NCBI GenBank assembly: GCA_000830255.1
Contig: JQIT01000002.1
Coordinates: 181,020 to 245,019, forward strand
DNA from: Sulfuricurvum sp. PC08-66
GTDB lineage: Bacteria > Campylobacterota > Campylobacteria > Campylobacterales > Sulfurimonadaceae
DNA: 64,000 nucleotides
Direction of reading: 5' to 3'
In this document: in pieces, positions 1,985-61,530 of the stretch
Position numbering within the stretch: the stretch's first letter is position 1
How the letters are laid out: each line of letters starts with the position of its first letter
Program-made: the position numbers and the translations under genes
The notes under the pieces: generated by a model
Told to the model about the DNA's origin: nothing
Databases searched by the model: none
Seen by the model: only the letters and a program-made list of their open reading frames with translations

Positions 1985-2040
1985 AAATATTTGAGTTGGA
2001 AGTATATCTTTTATGACTTTTAATGTCAATACTTTGTCTA

Positions 2041-2814
2041 TTAAAAATCTATAACGTCGCCGTCTTTTAGCAATAAGCATTTTTGTGTTGCTGTTTGCGC
2101 TTGCAACTCTTGAATGATAATCGATTCACTGTTGGGTTTAATGTGATTAACATAGATATCTATAGCTCTTTTGAGTTTTTCAAGCTCCATCGCCAATAAC
2201 TTAGGGGTCAGATGCTTACTCTCTTTAGCTAACGCTTCAAGTGCATTGTGAAATGAGCACTCAATAATTAAAGTATTAATATCCTTGCGACTGTTCAAAA
2301 GATCCCAAACTGAATAACTAATGTAAGTATCGGATGTAATTGCAATGGAACGCCCCATTTTTGTCACTACATATCCGCAACTTGGTACCGTGTGATTTGT
2401 TTTGAAAGCTTCGATATGTTCATTTTCACCTATTACATAGCGCTTGCCAATCTCTATAGGAAAGTACTCAACTGCATACATCTCACTGTTAAGTAATCGA
2501 ATGCGGCTAAAATCGGGCCAAATGAGTTCATTGAGAAAGTGTTTTTTGAGAATCAGCAGTGTTTGTGTCAAACCCGCAATACGTAGTGGACGCTTGCGCT
2601 TTTCGAAGTAAGCATCAAGCACATAAGCAATATCGACAATGTGATCCAAGTGAGAGTGCGTCAGCCATATCGTATCGATATTAGCACACTCTTCACCCAT
2701 CCCTTTTAGTAGATTGCCTGCGTCAATCAGGTGCGTTCCATTTAGCGCAAAACAGGTTGTCTCCCGATCGTGTGCTTTTGTTCCGTTTGCACCAAGAACC
2801 GTAATTTGCGCCAT
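2041..2814 (-). CDS. MBL-fold hydrolase, class II 3',5'-cyclic-nucleotide phosphodiesterase-like (PDEase_II-like)
   Basis: 257 aa with no signal peptide. LIDAGNLL precedes THSHLDHIVDIAYVLD (HxHLDH), followed by HFLNELIWPDF. That combination is characteristic of class II cAMP PDEs (yeast PDE1 / Vibrio CpdP family) as I recall the family. It lies 54 nt downstream of a class III cyclase on the same strand. Confidence 0.6.
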   Translation of the reverse strand: MAQITVLGANGTKAHDRETTCFALNGTHLIDAGNLLKGMGEECANIDTIWLTHSHLDHIVDIAYVLDAYFEKRKRPLRIAGLTQTLLILKKHFLNELIWPDFSRIRLLNSEMYAVEYFPIEIGKRYVIGENEHIEAFKTNHTVPSCGYVVTKMGRSIAITSDTYISYSVWDLLNSRKDINTLIIECSFHNALEALAKESKHLTPKLLAMELEKLKRAIDIYVNHIKPNSESIIIQELQAQTATQKCLLLKDGDVIDF

Positions 2815-2868
2815 TCCTAACTACCCTTGTTTTCTTAGTAACAGTATATCGACATTTCTGATTTTTTT

Positions 2869-4947
2869 TTATTTTGTGGTGAACTTTACTGCACCAACAG
2901 TTTCGTGATTTTTTACCTTTTGGCTATTCTCACGTGCCTTTTGAGCGAAAAGAGTGCTCACTTCATCGCCATACGTTAATGCGTGCGCTTCAAAGCGTTC
3001 TATGACTGCATCGAACTCTTGTGCTTCGTAACGTGTAAGGATTTCATGAAAAGCAACCACGCGCCCTTGATTTTCTGGAGTGTTTGCCATCAGCTCATAA
3101 AGCGTAACTGCCTCATTTTTCCCTTTGACTTGCACAGGCTCCAATCTACGGCACAAGAAACTCTCATCGAGTTGTTCTTTCGTATAGTGCGTGATAAGAA
3201 TTTTGGTATGGTAATTTTTATTGAGCCCCTCCACACGTGAAGCCAAATTGACACCATCTCCGATGACGGTATAGTTAAATCGATCATCTGAACCCATATT
3301 CCCAACAATTACCTTGGCAGTATTAAGTCCAATACCTATATCGATAATAGGCAGACCCTCTTTGACAAACTCTGTGTTGAGTTTTTTGAGGTGTTCTATC
3401 ATCTCCAATGCGGAACGGCACGCTTTTTTGGCATGTTCCGTCACATCCAACGGTGCATTGTAAAAAGCCATAATTGCATCACCAATATATTTATCCAGCA
3501 TACCCTCATTTTTTCGAACGATGTGTGCCATTGGCGTGAAGTATCGATTGAGCAATTTAACCAACTCTTCGGGTTGCATGCGCTCGGAAATAGCCGTAAA
3601 GGAGCGAATATCACTGAAAAATATCGTCATCTCTTTGTTTTCACCGCCCAATTGGAGCAATTCGGGGTGTGCTTTGAGTTTGTCCAGAAGAATCGGTGAG
3701 AGGTAACTGGAAAACGCACTTTGAATAAACTTCGCCTCTTTCTCTTGCGATGTAAAGGCTATAACCTCATTCAAGACAGCCGAAGCGATAAAAAAGAGAA
3801 GTGGATAAAAGGTCTCCCACCAAATGTTGTAACGTATGTAGAGCCACTTTGCAACAATGACAAAAACCGCGACGACAAGGATATAGACAATACCTCTGGT
3901 CAATACACGTTTTAAAAACAGCGTAGCAAAAAGTGCAAAAAAGACAAACCCTATCGATATACCATACATCACACTTGGTTGGTGAGTTATGAGGTCATTA
4001 TCCAAATAATTTGACACAAAGGTATAGTGCAATAAAGGTCCTGCAATTGCCCCTATTGGCGTTGCTCGCACATCTTCGACACCCGCTTCTGTGATACCTA
4101 AAATAATAATTTTATTTTTTATTACTTCAGGGTCAACATTACCTGCATAGAGATCATAAAAAGAGATACTTTTGTAATTTTCTCTAGGATAAAAATTGAG
4201 CCTTGTAAATCCACGTTTGTCTACCTCAATCCATCTGCTATTGAGTTCGATGTGCGTTGAATCTCCCAATTTAATATCATACTCGATAGCACGCTTGGGC
4301 TCCAAAGCTTTTTGTTGTTGCAACGAGATGCTTAATGCACGGAGACCTATGCTGGGATAGAGCGAACCTTGGAACTCAAAACCCATGGGGTAAAAACGAA
4401 AAATACTGTCGCTCTCATAAAGTGTCGAGAAAGAGGCGTGGCGCGTACAGTTTTCATACACTGCATCGATATTGGTTTCGATGTAATCAGCACTACCAAA
4501 ATCAATTTGATCCGATTTCATTGCACGCATTTCAGAATCTATCAAATCATCACGTGTGAAGAGTTGCGTAGCTTCCTGACGCAAAAAAAATCCGCAAACG
4601 CTCGTGACACCACCGATAGCCTCTCCTAATGCAAAATCCGACTCTTCGTTGGTAGCTTCAGAAAAAACCATATCAAAGAGAACTACATCTGCTTCGGCAA
4701 GCTTTTGAACACCTTGCGCCACTACTTTTCTATCCCAAGGCCATCGACCAAGTTTATTAACACTCACCTCATCGATAGCGATAAAAAGAATTTTGTCGTT
4801 GGGAGTTTTGTCGTGAAATTGGAAGTTGTAGTCATCAAAACCAAGTGAAATAGCGTAAAAAGGGGGGAGTTTATAGTGCCAAACTCCCGCCAACACACCT
4901 GTCAAAAGGAGTGTAAAAAAGAGGTGTTTAAAAAGCTTAGAATGCAT
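2869..4947 (-). CDS. CHASE2 sensor domain-containing class III adenylate/guanylate cyclase
   Basis: 692 aa. Signal/TM segment, then a CHASE2-like periplasmic region (IAIDEVSVNKLGRWPWDRKVVAQGVQKL...VVLFDMVFSE). Several TM helices follow. The C-terminal class III cyclase core has FFSDIRSFT, DKYIGDAIMAF, GIGLNTAKVIVGNMGSDDRFNYTVIGDGVNLASRVEG. The Lys before IGD suggests adenine specificity; the second specificity position is Asn. Confidence 0.85.
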   Translation of the reverse strand: MHSKLFKHLFFTLLLTGVLAGVWHYKLPPFYAISLGFDDYNFQFHDKTPNDKILFIAIDEVSVNKLGRWPWDRKVVAQGVQKLAEADVVLFDMVFSEATNEESDFALGEAIGGVTSVCGFFLRQEATQLFTRDDLIDSEMRAMKSDQIDFGSADYIETNIDAVYENCTRHASFSTLYESDSIFRFYPMGFEFQGSLYPSIGLRALSISLQQQKALEPKRAIEYDIKLGDSTHIELNSRWIEVDKRGFTRLNFYPRENYKSISFYDLYAGNVDPEVIKNKIIILGITEAGVEDVRATPIGAIAGPLLHYTFVSNYLDNDLITHQPSVMYGISIGFVFFALFATLFLKRVLTRGIVYILVVAVFVIVAKWLYIRYNIWWETFYPLLFFIASAVLNEVIAFTSQEKEAKFIQSAFSSYLSPILLDKLKAHPELLQLGGENKEMTIFFSDIRSFTAISERMQPEELVKLLNRYFTPMAHIVRKNEGMLDKYIGDAIMAFYNAPLDVTEHAKKACRSALEMIEHLKKLNTEFVKEGLPIIDIGIGLNTAKVIVGNMGSDDRFNYTVIGDGVNLASRVEGLNKNYHTKILITHYTKEQLDESFLCRRLEPVQVKGKNEAVTLYELMANTPENQGRVVAFHEILTRYEAQEFDAVIERFEAHALTYGDEVSTLFAQKARENSQKVKNHETVGAVKFTTK

Positions 4948-5749
4948 CTTTGTCTAAGCTTTTGTCATTTTCATCTTTGAAAAAACCATCCGAAAAGGCC
5001 TCATCTGCACTCATTTTTTTGCCTGTGACGCTTTTTTCCAACTCTTTGGAAATAGCATTAAACTCTGCATCGCTCATGTAGAGTTTGAATTGGGCGCTAT
5101 CTTCACTCTCCATCGTCGACTCTAAAACTTGCTTGCCGTTGAACTGCAATTTTTTGCCCGCTTTCAAATCAAAGCTAGCGGTATACTCTGCAAACTCTTT
5201 ATAGAGCTCTTTTTTGTAGGCTTCAAACTCTGCCATCACTTGGTTGGGGGTTTGTGCCATCATTTTTTTGACTTTGTCTTCATCGATTTTTTCAAAATCG
5301 CTTCCATCAGGTGAATCGACACCCACGAGTCCCTCGTTGAGCGCTAAGGATTGTGAACTATTAGCATCTGTAACGACAAACTGTGTTCCCTTGACCCCAA
5401 TAATGGCAAAAGGGGTATTGACCTTCACCCCTGTGGCGCCTTTGCGCTTGGTTATTTTGAAATAGACTTTCCCGCCGTTTTGGGTAAATTCGTCTTGAGA
5501 GAGGAGTGTGAGTTTTGCATATTCGTCCACAACGATGCTGCTTTTGTCTGCTAGCTCCACTACCACTTTGCTGCCTTGATAGGTCAACAATGTATCGCCT
5601 GCCATTACCTCTGCACCTTGTTGTATCGAGAGCTGTTTGAGCGCGTGCTCATGCTGCACTTTTGCATTGCCCTCAAGCTTTTTGACTACTCCTACAACAT
5701 TTGCTTGCGCAATCAGTATGGCAACTAACCACAATGCTACTATCTTCAT
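4937..5749 (-). CDS. FecR-domain periplasmic protein
   Basis: 270 aa. N-terminal signal peptide MKIVALWLVAILIAQA. FecR-like beta region (...GAEVMAGDTLLTYQGSKVVVELADKSSIVVDEYAKLTL...FAIIGVKGTQFVVTD). The C-terminal half is low-complexity and K/E/D-rich. Its stop overlaps the cyclase start by 11 nt. Confidence 0.55.
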   Translation of the reverse strand: MKIVALWLVAILIAQANVVGVVKKLEGNAKVQHEHALKQLSIQQGAEVMAGDTLLTYQGSKVVVELADKSSIVVDEYAKLTLLSQDEFTQNGGKVYFKITKRKGATGVKVNTPFAIIGVKGTQFVVTDANSSQSLALNEGLVGVDSPDGSDFEKIDEDKVKKMMAQTPNQVMAEFEAYKKELYKEFAEYTASFDLKAGKKLQFNGKQVLESTMESEDSAQFKLYMSDAEFNAISKELEKSVTGKKMSADEAFSDGFFKDENDKSLDKDAF

Positions 5750-5776
5750 AAGCGCTCCTGCTTTTAGAATGTAGCC

Positions 5777-5804
5777 ATTATAGCCAAAAAAAATTTACCG
5801 TTAA
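5777..5804 (-). promoter_or_regulatory. Putative sigma70-type promoter for the FecR-like/cyclase operon (TTAACG-N16-TATAAT on the minus strand)
   Basis: Read from the reverse complement: ttaacggtaaattttttttggctataat, then 24 nt with AGGAG before the ATG at 5749. Confidence 0.3.
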
Positions 5805-5828: not shown

Positions 5829-7757
5829 TTACGCGCCTTTGATCATTTGCGCGATTGCCGCAGGGGTAAATCCAAAGTGTTCGAAAAGTTTATTCGCAGG
5901 TGCACTAGCCCCAAAAGAGTCCATTGTGACAACCTTGTGCGCGAATCGATACCACTCCATTCCACGTGCTGCTTCGATAGCGATGGCTTGCGTAGCGGGG
6001 TCGATGATACTATCGATATAGCTTTGGTTTTGCATGACGAGCAAATCAAAACAGGGAACACTTACAACATTACACGCCATGCCTTGAGTCTCAAGGAGCT
6101 TCGCAACCTCCAAAGCCAATCCAACTTCTGAACCTGACGCCATAAGCGTAATGGTTGCATTAGCCTCTTGACGCAACAAATAGCCCCCTTTGGCTACAGA
6201 ACCTACGAGAGGAGCATTAGGGAGTTTGGGCAATTTTTGGCGAGAACAGACAAAAGCGCTTGGAGCATTTTTCATCTCTAGTGCCACTTGCCAGCACGCT
6301 ACGTTTTCATCGCCATCCGCAGGACGGAAGGTGAAAAAATTGGGCAGTGCACGAAATTGTGAGAGGTGCTCGATAGGCTGATGCGTAGGACCATCTTCAC
6401 CTACACCGATACTGTCATGTGTCCAGACAAAAAAGTGCTGAATCCCTGCAAGCGCCGCGATACGTGCACTGGGTTTGAGGTAGTCACTGAAGACAAAAAA
6501 GGTAGCCGAAAAGGGCATGAGAGGACCATAAAGCGCCATTGCATTGGTAATAGCGGCCATTGCGTGCTCACGAATACCAAAATGGATATTTTTGCCTTTG
6601 GGGAAATCACCCATGTTTGTCAGTTCAGTTTTGTTGGAGGGTCCCAAATCTGCAGAACCGCCCAAGAAGCCTGGAAGCGCCTTGGCAATGGCATTGAGAA
6701 TGATGCCATTGCTGTCACGTGTCGCTACATCTGCATCAAATTTTGGCCATTGAATTTGGCTAAAGTCTGGATGCATGAGTCGCTCCAACGCTTCGTTTTG
6801 CTCTACCAACGGCATCTCTTTGAGTCGGTGATTCCACTCACGCTCTAGCAAATCTCCCTGCTCGATAGCACAGCGAAAACGTGTCAACACATCTGGATCG
6901 ATGGCGAATGTCGCCTCTGGGTCAAATCCAGCCGCTTTTTTGGAGGCTTTTATCTCCTCTACGCCTAGCGGTGCGCCGTGTGCATGGTGAGAACCCTCCA
7001 TCGATACAGAGCCTTTTGCCATAACAGTGTTGGCAATGATAAGCGTAGGTTTATTGGAGCTTTTGCCTTGCATGATGGCATCATCGATTTGAGCGAAATT
7101 GTGTCCATCGATTTCGATGACCTCCCACGCTTGCGCCTCAAAACGTCCACGAATATTTTCGGTGAAGCTCAAGCTCGTATCGCCCTCGATAGTGATGCGA
7201 TTTGAGTCGTAAATCATAATGAGATTACTTAGTGCATGATGCCCTGCCAACGAACACGCCTCGTAGGAAATCCCCTCTTGCAAATCGCCATCGCCACACA
7301 GACAATAAACATGGTGGTCGATAAGCGCGGCATTGGGACGATTGAGCATCTCACCCACATAACGACTTGCCATTGCAAAGCCTACTGCATTGGCTACGCC
7401 CTGCCCCAAAGGTCCCGTCGTAATTTCGATACCCGCTGTATGTCCAAACTCTGGATGCCCTGGAGTCTTGGCATCGAATTGGCGAAACGCTTGCAAGTCT
7501 TCGATAGAAAGTCCATACCCCCAAAGATAGTAGAGCGAATAGATGAGTCCCGTGGCATGTCCCCCTGAAAAGACCAAACGGTCGCGGTTGAGCCATTTGG
7601 GGTTTTTGGGGTTGTGACGTAGATGTTTGCTCAACACTACAGCAATATCTGCCAAGCCCATCGGTGCACCAGGGTGTCCTGAGTTGGCGCGTTGCACCAT
7701 GTCTGCCGCCAAAAAGCGAATAGTATTGGCATCTTTTTGCAATTGTTGTACGTTCAT
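5829..7757 (-). CDS. tkt: Transketolase
   Basis: 642 aa. N-terminus ...RFLAADMVQRANSGHPGAPMGLADIAVVL... and the TPP-binding GDGDLQEG motif. Full-length transketolase. Confidence 0.95.
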   Translation of the reverse strand: MNVQQLQKDANTIRFLAADMVQRANSGHPGAPMGLADIAVVLSKHLRHNPKNPKWLNRDRLVFSGGHATGLIYSLYYLWGYGLSIEDLQAFRQFDAKTPGHPEFGHTAGIEITTGPLGQGVANAVGFAMASRYVGEMLNRPNAALIDHHVYCLCGDGDLQEGISYEACSLAGHHALSNLIMIYDSNRITIEGDTSLSFTENIRGRFEAQAWEVIEIDGHNFAQIDDAIMQGKSSNKPTLIIANTVMAKGSVSMEGSHHAHGAPLGVEEIKASKKAAGFDPEATFAIDPDVLTRFRCAIEQGDLLEREWNHRLKEMPLVEQNEALERLMHPDFSQIQWPKFDADVATRDSNGIILNAIAKALPGFLGGSADLGPSNKTELTNMGDFPKGKNIHFGIREHAMAAITNAMALYGPLMPFSATFFVFSDYLKPSARIAALAGIQHFFVWTHDSIGVGEDGPTHQPIEHLSQFRALPNFFTFRPADGDENVACWQVALEMKNAPSAFVCSRQKLPKLPNAPLVGSVAKGGYLLRQEANATITLMASGSEVGLALEVAKLLETQGMACNVVSVPCFDLLVMQNQSYIDSIIDPATQAIAIEAARGMEWYRFAHKVVTMDSFGASAPANKLFEHFGFTPAAIAQMIKGA

Positions 7758-30716: not shown

Positions 30717-31396
30717 TATTTTTTCCTAGCTGCCTTCTCTTCAAGGCCTCCCATTCCAAATCGACGCGCCAGCTCTTGGCGTACCAAATCAGGCGCCACA
30801 CCCTTGTCCGCCATCGCTACCAAGGTGTGATAGAGCAAATCTGCCGCCTCATAGACCATCTCTTTGGTATTGTTATCTTTGACTGCAAACGTAAACTCTC
30901 CCGCCTCTTCGATAACCTTTTTGAGGTAGCCGTTTTGGCCTTTTGAGAGAAGTTGCGCTGTGTAGGAGGTAGAAGGGTCTGCTTTTTTCTTTTCCAAAAT
31001 CGTATGATAAAGTTGCTCGACCACACCGTACGTCTGTGTCGTATCGATAGCCACCTCCATAGTTGTCTGCATCGTACTAAAATCAGTAAAAAAGCAACTC
31101 TCTCTTCCCGTGTGACATGCTACACCTAGTTGGTCTACTTGAAGGAGAAGTGTATCGTTGTCACAATCGAGTAAAAAAGTATTGATTTTTTGGGTGTGAC
31201 CACTTGTTTCGCCCTTTTTCCAGATGCGTTGTTTGGTGCGAGAAAAATAGTGCGCATACCCTGTGGACAACGATAGCTCTAGCGCCTCACGGTTCATATA
31301 GGCGTGCATCAGCACCGCCAAAGTGTGGCTATCTTGGACGATGACAGGTAATAAATGGTTGCATTTTTCCCAGTCGATACGATCAATGTTGTTCAT
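30716..31396 (-). CDS. hisIE: Bifunctional phosphoribosyl-AMP cyclohydrolase / phosphoribosyl-ATP pyrophosphatase
   Basis: 226 aa. HisI motif ...GETSGHTQKI...CHTGRESCFF. The HisE helical C-terminal half is present. Confidence 0.95.
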   Translation of the reverse strand: MNNIDRIDWEKCNHLLPVIVQDSHTLAVLMHAYMNREALELSLSTGYAHYFSRTKQRIWKKGETSGHTQKINTFLLDCDNDTLLLQVDQLGVACHTGRESCFFTDFSTMQTTMEVAIDTTQTYGVVEQLYHTILEKKKADPSTSYTAQLLSKGQNGYLKKVIEEAGEFTFAVKDNNTKEMVYEAADLLYHTLVAMADKGVAPDLVRQELARRFGMGGLEEKAARKK

Positions 31397-44558: not shown

Positions 44559-45157
44559 TGCACAGTCGTCTAGAGACAAATTTCGCCGCTAACATGACCG
44601 CTATCCAAGCGGTACGTCCCAAACTACACCAAAAAATTGTTGCCGCATCGGTAGCACACAGCTATGAATTGCGTGTCGTCGATGCACAAAGCGGACTCTA
44701 CAATATTCACGATACGCTTCAACAAATGCCTGTTTTCAAAGATATTTTTGAAGAGCTCAAAACCACCATCAAAGAGGTTACTCACTTTGGAGAAGAGCCT
44801 TATATCTATCTCTATGGTATCTCGAATGGGTTTATTCTCAATTTTCTCCTCCAAAACAGCATGCATCATCGCATCTGTCTCTTCGAGCCTGAATTAGAGA
44901 TGCTTTTTACCGCTATGCATCTCTACGATTTTGCTTTGGCTATTACGACGCATCGTCTTGTACTCATCGATGCCAAGCGCTTTGCACCTGAAGAGGCAAA
45001 AATAGTTCTCTCTACTGATGAGCGCGTCTGGCAAACCCAACGCCTCATACTCCTACCCAATGGCATCTACTACAAAGAACACTACAAAGAACACTACAAA
45101 GAGTTGTGGCTCAAAACAGCTCAAACGCTCGCCAACATTCTCAAAAACGTATCGTAA
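44546..45157 (+). CDS. Maf (motility accessory factor)-like N-terminal-domain protein, short form / possible gene remnant
   Basis: 203 aa. ...EEPYIYLYGISNGFILNFLLQNSMHHRICLFEPELEMLFTAMHLYDF... resembles the N-terminal region of Campylobacter/Helicobacter Maf (DUF115) proteins, which are about 600 aa. This ORF ends at 45157. It contains the 12-bp tandem repeat encoding KEHYKEHYKE. Confidence 0.4.
   Translation: MYFLMHSRLETNFAANMTAIQAVRPKLHQKIVAASVAHSYELRVVDAQSGLYNIHDTLQQMPVFKDIFEELKTTIKEVTHFGEEPYIYLYGISNGFILNFLLQNSMHHRICLFEPELEMLFTAMHLYDFALAITTHRLVLIDAKRFAPEEAKIVLSTDERVWQTQRLILLPNGIYYKEHYKEHYKELWLKTAQTLANILKNVS
45071..45103. repeat. 12-bp perfect tandem repeat (TACAAAGAACAC x2 plus a partial third copy), in frame within the CDS 44546-45157
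   Basis: Read directly: ctac TACAAAGAACAC TACAAAGAACAC TACAAAGAG. It encodes YKEHYKEHYKE. Confidence 0.8.
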
Positions 45158-47009
45158 AGCGTGCACCATAGGTGCTGTTGCTCACCTCGATAGTGCCCTG
45201 CATGCTCTCTTGTACAATTTGCTTAGCGATATGTAATCCTATGCCTGTGCCCGATGTCGCCTCTTTGGTGGTGAAAAATGGCTCAAAAATTTTATCGATA
45301 ATAGCTTCATCGATACCACCCGCATTGTCTTCAACACGAATAATTTTTTCACCCTCTACTTCATCGACTTCGATGTGTATGACAGGATCAGGAATGACAC
45401 GCTCCACCAAAACATCCTTGGCATTTTTGAGCAAGTTGATGATGACTTGATTGAGCTCATTAGGATACCCCATCATGCGCACCTCCTCTTTGGGGAGGAA
45501 AACGACACGAATATTTTTGGTCGAAAAATCGGTGTGGGTAAATTTAATCGCTTGTGCCACGACCGCTGAGATAGAAAAGGCTTTTTTCTCCTTGTCTGGC
45601 TTGTAATAGTTGAGAAAATCGCGGCTGGTTTGATTCATCAATCCTATTTGTTCATTGATACCATCGATACACTCTTGCGCCTCTTGACGCGATAGTTCAC
45701 CCAATTTCAAACTCATTTCGCTGTTGCCTACTATCGCCGCAATGGTACTCAACGGCTGTTTCCACTGGTGCGTAATACTCCCCATCATCTCACCCATGCC
45801 TGCCATACGTGATTGCAATTGGAGCATGCTATCTTTGCGCTTAACTTGTGCCTCGTAACGCAATCGCTCCTTCTCTCCAAACTGTAGGCGTGCATAAAGC
45901 GCATACGAGAAGACCAACCCTTCAATCGCAACACCAATAGCCACTCCCCATTTAGGACCGATGGGGAAATCGATAATATGCATATTGTTCAAGAGTGTCA
46001 AAACAGCAAAAAGAATAAACGTAGCATATCCAGCAGCATAAAGTCGCGCAGGTTCGTAGGAGCGTTTGTGGCTCACATAGAGTGCGTAAATAGCAATGAG
46101 AGAGACGCCCATCAATGCTACATTGATATGCCCCAACGCCTCATAGCCTTGAAAAACAACATAGCGCAACGCAAGCAAAACCAACACCACGCCATACCCC
46201 ACCATAAAATAGTGCAACCGTATATGGTGCTCTTTGATTTGCAAAAACGCGCTACTAAACAGGAGCAAAAAAAACATCGCAGTTGAGACGAATAGGATTT
46301 TGTCATACCCATTGAGCATCGCCACTTCAGGACGCACATAGGTAAAAAGCAGACCGTTATCTCCCACAATGAAGAGCAACATGAAAAACATATAGGCTAC
46401 GTATTTGGCATAGAGTGAACTACGCAAATTGATTGCCAAAATCAAATTATAGAGAATCAGCGCGACGACAATTCCTACCAATATCCCTTGTGAGACCATG
46501 CGTGTATTGCTTTGTGCCATATACCCCATGGTGTCTTGGACAAAAAAGCGCGGGATAATCTCTAGTGAGTCGATGCGCATAAAAAGCTCTACCTCTTCAT
46601 CAGGCGCCAATTGCAAGGAGACGATGGTCTCAGGAGAGGCAATGAGTCGCTGACTAAAAGGTACAAATTCACCTGACATCATTGACTCGATAGTGGTACC
46701 ACGTTTGACAAAGAAACTCACTCGGTGCAACCACATCCACTGTGCACCCAAAATCCACTCAGATAGGGCGGACTCATTGTGCAAGCGCAGGTAAAACCAA
46801 TAGGTCGATTCCCCTTTGGGCACGATGAAATGCTCTGCATCGAAGGGGATAAAGTGTGAAGCGTTTAGCGTATCGACGCTACTGCTATGAGAGGTATCTT
46901 CGTAAATTTGCAGGTGTGGAGAGAGGGAAAAATAGCCTGATTGGGTGAGAGTAAGAGGTGCTGCCCAAAGCGTTAGCGCTGTAAAAAGAAAAAGCCAAAC
47001 TTTTGCCAC
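45141..47009 (-). CDS. Sensor histidine kinase with 7TMR-DISM extracellular and 7TM domains
   Basis: 622 aa, GTG start. Signal peptide plus a periplasmic beta-sandwich-like region. Seven hydrophobic helices. HisKA (...MGSITHQWKQPLSTI...) and HATPase_c (...NLLKNAKDVL...RVEDNAGGID...GTGIGLHIAKQIV...). No response regulator is adjacent. Confidence 0.85.
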   Translation of the reverse strand: MAKVWLFLFTALTLWAAPLTLTQSGYFSLSPHLQIYEDTSHSSSVDTLNASHFIPFDAEHFIVPKGESTYWFYLRLHNESALSEWILGAQWMWLHRVSFFVKRGTTIESMMSGEFVPFSQRLIASPETIVSLQLAPDEEVELFMRIDSLEIIPRFFVQDTMGYMAQSNTRMVSQGILVGIVVALILYNLILAINLRSSLYAKYVAYMFFMLLFIVGDNGLLFTYVRPEVAMLNGYDKILFVSTAMFFLLLFSSAFLQIKEHHIRLHYFMVGYGVVLVLLALRYVVFQGYEALGHINVALMGVSLIAIYALYVSHKRSYEPARLYAAGYATFILFAVLTLLNNMHIIDFPIGPKWGVAIGVAIEGLVFSYALYARLQFGEKERLRYEAQVKRKDSMLQLQSRMAGMGEMMGSITHQWKQPLSTIAAIVGNSEMSLKLGELSRQEAQECIDGINEQIGLMNQTSRDFLNYYKPDKEKKAFSISAVVAQAIKFTHTDFSTKNIRVVFLPKEEVRMMGYPNELNQVIINLLKNAKDVLVERVIPDPVIHIEVDEVEGEKIIRVEDNAGGIDEAIIDKIFEPFFTTKEATSGTGIGLHIAKQIVQESMQGTIEVSNSTYGARFTIRF

Positions 47010-47066: not shown

Positions 47067-49013
47067 CTATTGCAAAAGTTTGAGAACGTTTTGTTGGACT
47101 GCGTTTGCTTGGCTAAGCGCATAGGAGCCTGATTGTGCCAAGATGTTGTTTTTATTAAAGGTTGAAGATTCGCTAGCGAAGTCAACATCCCGAATTTGAG
47201 ACTCTGCCGCTTTGACGTTAACCGCGGTAACAGAGATATTGTTGATGGTCACTTGCAATTGGATTTGGCTAGAACCCAGATCGGCGCGAACTGCATCGAG
47301 TTCTGTAATAGCCTGCTCTGCAATATCCATAGCACGCATTGCGCCCTCACGAGTGAGTAGCAATCCAACGGGATCGGTCTCTTGAATTTTGCCAGTCGTA
47401 ATCTCGATGAGCGTATGGCTGTTGACAATCTCGTTGAGTGTCATCGCGATGTCATTGTTGGGTTTGGAGAGTTGCGCATCTGCGTAGTGGGTAGATTGAA
47501 CATCCATGACCCCCAAACCTTTGCGTGTGAACTCGATTTTGCCCGCATGAATACCATCTTCGATACCCGTAAGGTCATTGAACCCTTTGAGGTTCATCGC
47601 GCGCCCGTCCGAGGTAAGCGTAAGGGTACCATCTGCTTCCAATGCCGCGGTAACACCCGTCTTGGCACGTTGATTATTGATAGAGTTTACGACTTTGTTA
47701 TCGACATCCGAAGCGAGGATAATATCCCCTTGCCCCAAAATAGTGATGCCATTGATAACCAAATCGGCTTCGAGTGCACCGCCACGAATTTTGATACTCG
47801 ACTCTTGGCGCACCAAAGCATGGGCGCGGATACCTGTCTCTGGACTACTCTCATTGACCATACGTGCCAAATCGCCCAATCCAGTACCTACTATACCATT
47901 ACCATCTTCATCAGTGAGTTGCACACCTGGTAATTCGATACCATCGACGTTGTAGCGAAGGTAATCGGAGCCTTGGTGAATCGTACCAATTTGCTCACGG
48001 TGTGTAAAACGCGTATCGGTGACATCAGGTTGTGTACCCTTGTCTAGCGTGATAGTACCTTTGAGCTTGTTGTCAGGGTCTGTACCCGTGGCTACTTGCG
48101 TAATAGTGAGTTTTTCTGTCGTACCATCGGCATAGGTGACGGCAAATTGGTCACCTACTGCATAACCAGAGATATCATCTATGTCAAGTACATTATTTCC
48201 TGTGTCAAGCTTGAACTCAAAAATCTCTTGTGCGTAGTCTACGACAGAGAATTTGGTCACATCGTAGAGCGGCTTTTCGAGAGGTTTGTCCAGCGTGATG
48301 GTCGAAATAGAGTCCGCCGTACTTGTATCAAACGTACCCGCCATAATTTTGTAATCGCCAACACCATCGATACGAATCGTATCGCCTACCGCCAACCCTT
48401 TTGCATTCACACCTTTGAGGTCGATGGTAGGTGAACCTATGACCGTGGGCTCTACTTGAGCCGTGTTGCCTACTTTGACAATATCTTTACGCGTGGTGAT
48501 ATTTCCAGTCGCTACCGCTGAAGTGTTAGAGATACTTGCGCGAATCGTCTCATTGGAGTAGGCACCGATTTGGAACTCTTTGTTGGTGAATTTTCCGTTG
48601 AGCAACTGCTCGCCGTTAAACGACGTAGTACGCGCGATATTATCGAGCTGTTCGATAAGTCTATCGACGTCTTTTTGAATCGCGGCACGTGAACTTTGTG
48701 ATTGGTTGTCAGAAGAGGCTTGAATCGCTTTCATTTTGATGGTATCGAGAATTTTTATCTGCTCGTCCATCGCTTTATCAGCGGTTTGAATAATCCCCAT
48801 TGCATCGTTGGCGTTGGATACGGCTTGGGAGAGCGCATTGGCTTGAGATTTCAAGCTGTCTGCGATGGCTAGACCCGAAGAGTCATCTGCTGCTTTGTTG
48901 ATACGTAGACCAGAACTCAGTTTTTCCAAGCTGGTATTGATGTCACGATTGGTTCCAACACCGTAGAGGTGTGCATTCATTGCTGCGATGTTGGTGTTTA
49001 TTCTAAAGCCCAT
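47067..49013 (-). CDS. Flagellin (FlaB/FlaA-type, 648 aa with extended central domain)
   Basis: Conserved N-terminus MGFRINTNIAAMNAHL...LEKLSSGLRINKAADDSSGLAIADSL. Campylobacter-type C-terminus ...VTAVNVKAAESQIRDVDFASESSTFNKNNILAQSGSYALSQANAVQQNVLKLLQ. Long Thr/Ser/Asp/Gly-rich central region. Confidence 0.95.
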   Translation of the reverse strand: MGFRINTNIAAMNAHLYGVGTNRDINTSLEKLSSGLRINKAADDSSGLAIADSLKSQANALSQAVSNANDAMGIIQTADKAMDEQIKILDTIKMKAIQASSDNQSQSSRAAIQKDVDRLIEQLDNIARTTSFNGEQLLNGKFTNKEFQIGAYSNETIRASISNTSAVATGNITTRKDIVKVGNTAQVEPTVIGSPTIDLKGVNAKGLAVGDTIRIDGVGDYKIMAGTFDTSTADSISTITLDKPLEKPLYDVTKFSVVDYAQEIFEFKLDTGNNVLDIDDISGYAVGDQFAVTYADGTTEKLTITQVATGTDPDNKLKGTITLDKGTQPDVTDTRFTHREQIGTIHQGSDYLRYNVDGIELPGVQLTDEDGNGIVGTGLGDLARMVNESSPETGIRAHALVRQESSIKIRGGALEADLVINGITILGQGDIILASDVDNKVVNSINNQRAKTGVTAALEADGTLTLTSDGRAMNLKGFNDLTGIEDGIHAGKIEFTRKGLGVMDVQSTHYADAQLSKPNNDIAMTLNEIVNSHTLIEITTGKIQETDPVGLLLTREGAMRAMDIAEQAITELDAVRADLGSSQIQLQVTINNISVTAVNVKAAESQIRDVDFASESSTFNKNNILAQSGSYALSQANAVQQNVLKLLQ

Positions 49014-60252: not shown

Positions 60253-60276
60253 TTGCGTCACATTAAGGAGTCACGG

Positions 60277-61530
60277 ATGACTATCACGCTTCTAGGGCGA
60301 CAACCTATCTTCGACCGTCAAAATCAGGTCACTTTCTATCGCCTCACCTATCGCAATCGACCCAAAAACGATAAAATTCCTGCGCAAGCGTTGGCTGACT
60401 TTGCTCACAATTTCGACACATTGATGCATGCCATCGGCATCAATGCGGCACTCGAAGATAAGCGCGGCTGGGTCAAAATCAGCGATCAAATTTTGACCAA
60501 AACCGACTTAACGCTTTTGCCTGCTTCCAAGCTCATTTTTGAAATCGAGGCACAGGTATTTTCCATCAAACTCTCCCAAATTATCCAAGAGTACGCCGAA
60601 CAGGGGTACGTCTTTGCCCTCAATGAAGCGCTGGTCGAAGATGTCATTGCCAAGTGTGGAGAGGCGTACTTGGCGCTTTTTGAGTATGTGACCTTCAATA
60701 TTCGCAAGCTCGATATCGCACACTATCACGCCCATAACAAGCTCTTCGATGAGCTAGCCATCAAACGTGTCGCCACCCATGTCGAGACCAAACGTGGTCT
60801 AGAAATTGCCCTTGAAATGGGTTTTGATTATGTATGCGGGAGCTTTTTCAAAGAGGCTACCGTCATCAAAGGCAAACAGCTAAGCCCTCATCAGACCACC
60901 TATTTGCAACTCATTAGCCTCCTCAACAACCCTGAATCGACACCCGACATTGTCACCCTTTTCAAACACGCACCCAGTGAGAGTTTGCAACTTCTCTCTT
61001 ATATCAACTCAGCAGGCTTAGCCACCAACAAAACCATCAACAACATCGAGCAAGCGGTCAAACTCTTGGGTCCCAAACGTCTACGTGCATGGGCTAATAT
61101 GATGCTTTTGGCGTGTGAAGAGGGCAATTTCAATGAACTGCTTTTGGATACATCACTCATGCGTGCCTATATGATGGAGCGATTGGCGCATATATTACAC
61201 CGAGACGCACTCATGGACGAAGCCTATTTGGTAGGGATGCTCTCCTTAGCCGATACGATTTTGGCGCTACCGATGCAGACCTTGGTAGAGAAAATACATC
61301 TGGGCGAGAGCGTCGCAAAGGCGTTGGCGTTGGGCGAAGGTGAATTGGGCAAAATTTTGCACATCGTCAAAGCTATCGAGCGTGGTAATTTCCGCCAAAT
61401 CGAAATCTTTTCACGCCGTCTCAATATCCCTTTTGAGAGCATCCACATACTCCTCAAAGAGGCTTTCGTCTACGTACGCACCACCAAAAGCCAACTCTCG
61501 ACGACCAAAGAGAGCACTAAAAAAGCGTAG
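60277..61530 (+). CDS. Degenerate EAL domain + HDOD domain signalling protein (COG3434/YuxH-like)
   Basis: Start trimmed to MTITLLGRQPIFDRQNQVTFYRLTYRN. That is the EAL-domain opening with the EAL motif itself replaced (Glu->Arg). C-terminal HDOD-like region (...TTYLQLISLLNNPESTPDIVTLFKHAPSESLQLLSYINSAGL...). Confidence 0.65.
   Translation: MTITLLGRQPIFDRQNQVTFYRLTYRNRPKNDKIPAQALADFAHNFDTLMHAIGINAALEDKRGWVKISDQILTKTDLTLLPASKLIFEIEAQVFSIKLSQIIQEYAEQGYVFALNEALVEDVIAKCGEAYLALFEYVTFNIRKLDIAHYHAHNKLFDELAIKRVATHVETKRGLEIALEMGFDYVCGSFFKEATVIKGKQLSPHQTTYLQLISLLNNPESTPDIVTLFKHAPSESLQLLSYINSAGLATNKTINNIEQAVKLLGPKRLRAWANMMLLACEEGNFNELLLDTSLMRAYMMERLAHILHRDALMDEAYLVGMLSLADTILALPMQTLVEKIHLGESVAKALALGEGELGKILHIVKAIERGNFRQIEIFSRRLNIPFESIHILLKEAFVYVRTTKSQLSTTKESTKKA

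Follow-up and report, generated by a model that had tools for sequence, protein, structure and literature searches.

Three adjacent genes on the minus strand of a 64,000-nucleotide stretch of the Sulfuricurvum sp. PC08-66 genome (contig JQIT01000002.1, positions 181,020 to 245,019; hereafter the window) encode a secreted FecR-domain protein, a CHASE2-sensor class III cyclase, and a cytoplasmic metallo-β-lactamase (MBL)-fold hydrolase of the class II cyclic nucleotide monophosphate (cNMP) phosphodiesterase family. We read these tightly spaced genes as a three-gene operon for signal-controlled turnover of cyclic AMP (cAMP), with a probability of roughly 0.7. The arrangement is not the product of chance: it recurs in many species, in varied gene orders and partly in the form of gene fusions. 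The module is a reduced member of a gene cluster that has already been noted in silico across the phylum.

Open reading frame (ORF) calling places the genes 5′ to 3′ in the order FecR-like protein (4937..5749, 270 aa), CHASE2 cyclase (2869..4947, 692 aa), and MBL protein (2041..2814, 257 aa), and the gene calls of the public assembly are identical for all three. The stop codon of the FecR-like gene and the start codon of the cyclase gene lie within a shared 11 nt (4937-4947), and 54 nt (2815-2868) separate the cyclase gene from the MBL gene. The module is flanked upstream by tkt (5829-7757) and downstream by tRNA-Thr/Tyr/Gly/Thr and then tuf, with the first tRNA-Thr at 1908-1984. These positions agree with those given in an earlier sequence-only reading of the same DNA, and its assignments of a signal-peptide FecR-domain protein, a CHASE2-sensor cyclase with multiple transmembrane (TM) segments, and an MBL-fold protein of the class II phosphodiesterase type are borne out by Pfam, where FecR, CHASE2, Guanylate_cyc, PDEase_II, and Lactamase_B_2 all score above their cut-offs.

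The cyclase consists of one TM segment, a CHASE2 domain, three further TM segments, and a catalytic domain, as defined by hydropathy and Pfam. TM1 covers residues 5-23 (nt 4879-4935), the periplasmic CHASE2 domain residues 30-331 (nt 3955..4860; PF05226, 126.4 bits versus a cut-off of 26.3), the block of three TM segments residues ~324-400 (nt 3748-3978), and the cytoplasmic catalytic domain residues 438-615 (nt 3103..3636; Guanylate_cyc, PF00211, 102.2 bits versus a cut-off of 21.9). A 77-residue extension (nt 2872-3102) forms the carboxyl terminus. The nearest solved relatives are Pseudomonas aeruginosa CyaB (3r5g, E = 2e-35) and Synechocystis Cya2 and its derivative. Alignment with CyaB (3r5g) and Cya2 (2w01) locates the catalytic pair of metal-binding aspartates at Asp446 and Asp490 and the transition-state residues at Asn567 and Arg571. 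The substrate-defining positions are occupied by Lys486, in the motif DKYIGD, and Thr560, in YTVIGDGVNLASR. This Lys/Thr pair is common to the window protein and the adenylate cyclase CyaB, whereas the guanylate cyclase Cya2 has Glu/Gly at these positions, and it predicts a purine (ATP) substrate. In the classification of Linder and Schultz, lysine together with threonine in place of aspartate is said to be the hallmark of class IIIb. By the rules for class III enzymes, the protein is predicted to be a class IIIb adenylate cyclase that can be active as a homodimer, and its catalytic residues point to cAMP as the product.

The MBL protein has no TM segment and no signal peptide by hydropathy. 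It scores 50.6 bits against PDEase_II (PF02112; cut-off 23.7) and 43.1 bits against Lactamase_B_2 (cut-off 27), and relatives that carry the domain as part of a fusion reach 60 bits against PF02112. The blocks named in the sequence-only reading are present: LIDAGN lies at residue 29, HSHLDH occupies residues 53-58 (nt 2641-2658), and LIWPDF residues 97-102. The metal motif residues H53, H55, D57, H58, H141, D162, and H224 are invariant among 20 homologues with 48-67% identity, as are D31 and H201. The best match of the single sequence in the Protein Data Bank is yeast class II phosphodiesterase PDE1 (4ojv, E = 5e-10). The family profile places PDE1 first (E = 1.4e-15), followed by RNase ZS1 (2.6e-5) and YhfI (1e-4), which puts PDE1 ahead of RNase Z by ten orders of magnitude. 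The AlphaFold2 model (predicted local distance difference test score, pLDDT, of 92) falls in the RNase Z/ELAC/YhfI/Apyc1/PDE1 branch of the fold, and its top query-normalized TM-score, 0.80, is to PDE1. An MBL fold, an HxHLDH metal motif, and an [LF]N[DE]LIWPD block are common to yeast PDE1 and the window protein, but the two are only ~19% identical, and PDE1 is longer (369 versus 257 aa) and has insertions that the window protein lacks. The family is of modest size, with 392 clusters at E ≤ 1e-30 in a search of 1.84 billion representatives clustered at 50%, and many of the top matches are 625-810 aa long rather than ~257 aa. These similarities suggest that the MBL protein is a divergent member of PF02112 rather than a generic MBL hydrolase. 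It likely hydrolyzes cNMPs, and cAMP is its presumed substrate.

A cyclase next to an MBL hydrolase also brings to mind a Pycsar-like anti-phage system in which the MBL protein would be an Apyc1-like nuclease. The cyclase catalytic domain matches the PADLOC PycC models (best 102 bits), precomputed Pfam tables list PF23023 (Anti-Pycsar_Apyc1) for the MBL protein, and Apyc1 and YhfI are among its fold matches. The PycC matches are confined to the catalytic core and reflect generic class III homology, however, and a CHASE2 sensor with four TM segments is typical of environmental signaling. The Lys/Thr pair predicts a purine substrate, whereas a Pycsar cyclase is a cytosolic pyrimidine enzyme. The MBL protein has no PADLOC match, and neither a TIR nor a TM killer effector of the Pycsar type lies next to these genes. 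PF23023 is not recovered at E ≤ 0.1 in a direct scan of the window protein; its score in a fused relative is 27 bits, where the cut-off is 50, and NF041851 scores 18.5 against 400. The locus occupies the conserved housekeeping position between tkt and tuf and not a defense island. An anti-phage role is extremely unlikely. The listing of PF23023 for 2041-2814 in the precomputed tables and its absence from the direct hmmscan (E ≤ 0.1) may stem from different model versions.

The FecR-like protein is entered publicly as a hypothetical protein. Its signal peptide (residues 1 to ~20, nt ~5690-5749) lies in the only hydrophobic segment detected by hydropathy (residues 1-25), with no further TM segment, and the FecR β-domain spans residues 52-142 (nt 5324-5596; PF04773, 39.4 bits versus a cut-off of 24). 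The carboxyl-terminal part had been described as a low-complexity tail rich in Lys, Glu, and Asp. The composition is as described, with these three residues making up 38% of positions 151-270, but most of the region is conserved. Residues ~170-237 (nt ~5039-5242) have 18 invariant positions in an alignment of 20 homologues and form a helix and four strands in the AlphaFold2 model (pLDDT ~88-91). Disorder is predicted only for the acidic and basic end of the protein, the last ~35 residues (~236-270). The best fold matches of the model are the periplasmic domains of FecR-type anti-sigma factors (4m0h/4m0n) and PupR (6ovk, a complex with an outer-membrane transducer domain), and these matches are weak (E = 4e-4 to 5e-3, TM-scores of 0.4-0.5). 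The protein has no N-terminal cytoplasmic anti-sigma domain, the signal peptide running straight into the β-domain, and neither fecI nor fecA lies beside the gene, whose neighbors are tkt and the cyclase gene. It is therefore a FecR-domain protein and not a FecIRA-type anti-sigma factor.

Gene neighborhoods were compared in 80 species-representative loci (numbered with the prefix L) that were chosen by similarity to the MBL protein and annotated by tblastn, ORF clustering, small hidden Markov models, and Pfam; the counts are approximate because contig ends cut many loci. A CHASE2 cyclase lies within ~6 kb of the MBL gene in 41 of the 80 loci. An ORF with a FecR domain is nearby in 26, 24 of which also have the cyclase, so the three genes are co-conserved in relatives. 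The FecR-domain ORF typically abuts the cyclase start or overlaps it by 0-4 nt. A TPR protein is encoded near the MBL gene in 13 loci and a GAF-HD-GYP protein in 62, and in 40 loci the GAF-HD-GYP protein is fused to the MBL domain. The MBL gene stands alone in 14. The linkage spans Sulfurimonadaceae, Arcobacteraceae, Sulfurospirillaceae, and Aquificales with varying gene orders, and the closest relatives in a species-level genome collection are metagenome-assembled genomes (MAGs) of Sulfurimonadaceae. Two fusion orders occur, and both were confirmed by Pfam. The order GAF-HD-GYP-MBL (~640 aa) is found in Sulfurimonas and the order MBL-GAF-HD-GYP (~780 aa) in Arcobacter, Sulfurospirillum, and others; fusions of 642 and 778 aa are encoded at L018:4849-6777 and L057:6001-8337, respectively. 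Sulfurimonas sp. HSL-1716 (CP147918.1; L086) retains an intact four-gene version. Its 385-aa GAF-HD-GYP ORF (L086:6851-8008) is intact, sits in a seemingly empty 1.1-kb stretch between the cyclase and MBL genes, and is absent from the recorded gene list of contig CP147918.1. A Helicobacteraceae MAG has tandem MBL paralogues after its CHASE2 cyclase (L075:5917-6774 and 6771-7550).

The variable make-up of the cluster and the 14 loci with a solitary MBL gene would also be expected if the three genes were correctly annotated but functionally independent, with no common pathway. Against this stand the single strand, the 11-nt overlap, and the 54-nt gap in the window, and the recurrence of cyclase, FecR, and MBL genes together across families in differing orders. 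The same cluster was also arrived at independently in a published survey (PMC9239204). Functional independence is very improbable.

The position of the module bears on a different assignment of the MBL protein, as an RNase Z/ELAC-type tRNA 3′-processing nuclease that serves tRNA-Thr-Tyr-Gly-Thr and has the FecR-cyclase pair as an unrelated neighbor. Sulfurimonadaceae loci carry the cluster at the same site as the window, and in all of those checked the tRNA-tuf cluster follows immediately on the MBL gene, even where this gene stands alone. RNase Z structures are among the top fold matches, some JGI records call homologues 'ribonuclease BN', and the best NCBIfam matches are RNase Z models. The scores of these models, 57 and 51 bits, fall far short of their cut-offs (TIGR02651, 57.4 versus 292.95; NF000801, 51.3 versus 252), however, and the family profile favors PDE1 by the wide margin given above. 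The tRNA cluster also has a strong promoter-like site of its own. Outside the Sulfurimonadaceae, no tRNA lies within 6 kb of the MBL gene, and the links to cyclase and GAF-HD-GYP genes and the fusions persist. Because tRNA adjacency is limited to Sulfurimonadaceae synteny and the signaling link is kept elsewhere, the nuclease assignment was rejected, and we give it little credence.

The GAF-HD-GYP proteins of the related loci are orthologues of the crystallized enzyme PmGH from Persephonella marina (4mcw; E = 4e-99 and 1e-136). Their GAF domain matches the cAMP-binding GAF domain of Anabaena CyaB2 (1ykd) and the GAF domains of PDE2/5/10. One source (10.1101/2021.11.05.467447) cites Tlr0485 as a cAMP-dependent GAF-HD-GYP protein, in which cAMP bound to the GAF domain can switch on hydrolysis of cyclic di-GMP (c-di-GMP), and reports the ligand of the PmGH GAF domain as unknown. 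The adjacency or fusion of a PmGH orthologue to the MBL domain in 62 of the 80 loci, together with its cNMP-binding type of GAF domain, indicates that the ancestral cluster probably coupled cAMP to c-di-GMP breakdown. No such protein is encoded in the window, and PmGH and Tlr0485 are relevant to it only as the probable ancestral output. No publication on an HD-GYP/PDEase_II fusion architecture was found in the literature searched. Among the Aquificales MAGs, PmGH orthologues occur at L079:4908-5996 and in L076 and L077, and another lies at L008:4833-5999. In the Aquificales loci, the orthologue directly precedes the MBL gene, and L076 and L079 also have a CHASE2 cyclase nearby; this adjacency suggests cAMP as the ligand of the PmGH GAF domain.

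The same linkage supports the main rival for the MBL enzyme, in which it would not be a cAMP phosphodiesterase but would serve the HD-GYP protein in turnover of c-di-GMP or cyclic GMP-AMP, for instance by cleaving the linear pGpG that results, and adjacency to the cyclase would be secondary. GAF-HD-GYP is the tightest and widest link of the family, present in 62 loci against 41 for the cyclase, with 40 fusions in two orders, and the fold matches include RNase Z-like MBL enzymes, which act as nucleases or phosphodiesterases on linear RNA. The relationship of the family profile to cNMP-specific class II phosphodiesterases argues the other way, and the cNMP-binding type of the fused GAF domain fits cAMP as a shared ligand. 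L004 (the nearest relative of the window), L042, L068, and the window also hold a cyclase and an MBL gene without GAF-HD-GYP, although this combination is rare. We regard a c-di-GMP role of the MBL enzyme as unlikely and prefer cNMP hydrolysis.

The window and L004 have neither a GAF-HD-GYP gene nor a TPR gene. A tblastn search with the TPR protein of relatives found no such gene between tkt and the tRNAs or elsewhere in the window. A midpoint-rooted neighbor-joining tree of the MBL domain, which has no support values, groups the window with L004 in one clade, and the sister clade and outgroups mostly have GAF-HD-GYP. Loss of GAF-HD-GYP in the lineage of the window is thus the most parsimonious history, and the TPR partner would have been lost likewise. 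A broader proposal is that the class II-like phosphodiesterase and the PmGH-type GAF-HD-GYP protein make up a conserved and often fused unit for crosstalk from cAMP to c-di-GMP in Campylobacterota and Aquificales, that cAMP is the PmGH GAF ligand, that the window represents an uncoupled lineage with a minimal envelope-to-cAMP pulse generator, and that the FecR-like protein is a direct partner of CHASE2. This combination is put forward tentatively, with the odds against all of its parts being correct together.

The module is a source and a sink with no receiver detected in the window. A tblastn search of the window with E. coli CRP, the c26 cNMP-binding membrane protein, and the GAF-HD-GYP and TPR proteins of relatives returned nothing credible. 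Precomputed or direct Pfam annotation lists no cNMP_binding, CRP, or GAF protein in the remainder of the window. A weak GAF match at 31219-31359 (E = 0.007) falls inside hisIE and was discarded as spurious. The module had been called self-contained in the sequence-only reading, and this description fails because the module encodes no cNMP receptor and none was found in the 64-kb window; the GAF-HD-GYP and TPR partners of relatives are absent as well.

Other signaling genes were noted in the related loci and in the window. In some Sulfurimonadaceae loci, among them L035 (L035:1343-3790, minus strand), L033, and L039, a divergent gene upstream of GAF-HD-GYP/MBL encodes an 815-aa membrane protein that has a ferredoxin-like motif, CxxCxxCxxxCP, and ends in a cNMP_binding domain (72 bits). 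A double-rhodanese protein is encoded next to it, and the membrane protein is a possible cAMP effector with a link to sulfur metabolism. It has no homologue in the window. The window itself encodes a 425-aa protein at 60253-61530 (+) with an HDOD domain and an EAL match below threshold (28 bits versus a cut-off of 31), which may be a degenerate c-di-GMP-related signaling protein. A 7TMR-DISM sensor histidine kinase (7TMR-DISMED2, 7TM, HATPase_c) at 45141-47009 (-) adjoins a 648-aa flagellin gene at 47067-49013 (-).

The boundaries of the module were examined with consensus promoter and terminator scans. A promoter-like site on the minus strand (TTAACG-16 nt-TATAAT, 5777..5804, 10/12 matches) sits in the 79-nt space between the tkt stop codon and the FecR-like start codon, and AGGAG lies a few bases 5′ of the FecR-like ATG (5749). 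The site suggests that the module may carry a promoter of its own. The stronger of two such sites (TTGACA-17 nt-TATACT, 2001..2029, minus strand) is located between the MBL stop codon and tRNA-Thr, outside the module, and marks its end; its position ahead of tRNA-Thr indicates that the tRNA-tuf cluster is probably under a separate promoter. Promoter and terminator sites in the region are no more numerous than in shuffled sequence, so they are weak boundary hints only. A 9-bp hairpin containing GC, with a T-rich run after it (4865-4888, minus strand), is found ~60 nt into the cyclase ORF, in the part that encodes TM1. It could be an internal attenuator or a chance occurrence, and terminator-like sites of the region do not exceed shuffles.

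Clusters of this composition have been reported before. According to a comparative genomic study (Mo et al. 2022, mBio, PMC9239204), ~21% of Campylobacterota species encode an adenylate cyclase, all of these cyclases have CHASE2, most are clustered with a cAMP-hydrolyzing phosphodiesterase and FecR-domain and TPR proteins, and the cluster spread by horizontal transfer. The window belongs to the same phylum and has the CHASE2 cyclase, the adjacent phosphodiesterase, and the adjacent FecR-domain protein, and the TPR protein of the published cluster was recovered in 13 related loci. It differs in having neither the TPR gene nor a GAF-HD-GYP gene, and in its FecR-like protein, which is secreted and short, the TbpB-like barrel that some relatives have at the C terminus is missing. 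The study presents no experiments, and its accessible text mentions neither the GAF-HD-GYP partner nor the MBL fusion and does not allow its phosphodiesterase to be confirmed as a member of the MBL family rather than HD-GYP. The proposal that the module is an undescribed regulatory system thus does not hold, and the narrower statement that no characterized instance is known stands, with no experimental work on Campylobacterota members found in the literature searched.

Two other systems resemble parts of the module. The Sinorhizobium meliloti CHASE2-class III cyclases CyaD1/CyaD2/CyaK answer an extracellular protein signal, acting via the outer-membrane protein NsrA, with a rise in cAMP (PMC13001267), and the periplasmic FecR-domain protein SMc02177 belongs to the same regulon, as one of the targets that Clr, a cAMP regulator, controls downstream of these cyclases (PMC5498481). 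S. meliloti differs in being an alphaproteobacterium with a CRP-like receptor, Clr; SMc02177 is reported to be dispensable for signal perception, and no class II phosphodiesterase is described in the operon. The Burkholderia 'BiofilmReg' operon consists of a response regulator, a LysM-FecR periplasmic protein, and a CHASE2 histidine kinase (PMC5192318). As in the window, the gene for a CHASE2 membrane sensor directly follows that for a secreted FecR-domain protein, and this pairing suggests that FecR-CHASE2 is a general sensor module. The output in Burkholderia is a histidine kinase and a response regulator, not a cyclase, its FecR protein carries LysM, and cNMP enzymes are absent.

The operon would work as follows. 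The cyclase would sit in the inner membrane, where its periplasmic CHASE2 domain would take an extracytoplasmic cue and control the cytoplasmic class IIIb domain, which as a homodimer would convert ATP to cAMP. Translation of the FecR-like protein would be coupled to that of the cyclase, and the protein would be exported to the periplasm. There it most likely binds CHASE2, or bridges CHASE2 to an envelope component, and gates or delivers the signal, by analogy with the FecR-type domains that contact partner proteins in cell-surface signaling. The MBL protein would be a binuclear-metal class II-type 3′,5′-cNMP phosphodiesterase that hydrolyzes cAMP and thereby limits and resets the signal, and transient cNMP pulses may result. 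The ancestral output would have been a cAMP-sensing PmGH-type c-di-GMP phosphodiesterase, and the module in the window would be left without an output gene.

Several observations weigh against this operon reading. The MBL family is tied more closely to GAF-HD-GYP than to the cyclase and includes solitary genes, so the substrate of the enzyme need not be the product of the neighboring cyclase; the approximate nature of the locus counts and the unsupported tree also limit the comparison. The fold search does not separate YhfI, RNase Z, PDE1, and Apyc1, all of which score between E = 1e-13 and 1e-15. The PROSITE signature of class II phosphodiesterases is H-x-H-L-D-H-[LIVM]-x-[GS]-[LIVMA]-[LIVM](2)-x-S-[AP], and the MBL protein fits its first seven positions alone (HxHLDH-I). 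After HxHLDH the signature is partial, with HSHLDHIVDIAYVLD in the window and HPHLDHISGLVVNSP in yeast PDE1. The AlphaFold2 model of the FecR-like protein is unstable, the best of five reaching a pLDDT of 78 and the others ~55, and the evidence for contact between this protein and CHASE2 is gene adjacency and translational coupling. No cNMP-binding protein is found within the window, and the literature searched contains no enzyme activity, ligand, or phenotype for any member of the cluster.

To our knowledge, neither a ligand nor a partner has been reported for any CHASE2 domain. The operon brings together a sensor cyclase, a probable periplasmic partner, and a degrading enzyme and would be a compact minimal system for the study of CHASE2 signals and of cAMP in Campylobacterota. 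If the proposed partnership is correct, the FecR-like protein would provide a route to the signals that CHASE2 perceives. The MBL/GAF-HD-GYP fusions and the PmGH link in relatives are a more interesting lead than the module in the window. The habitual fusion or adjacency of PmGH orthologues to the phosphodiesterase, often near a CHASE2 cyclase, predicts that c-di-GMP hydrolysis is under the control of cAMP in these phyla.

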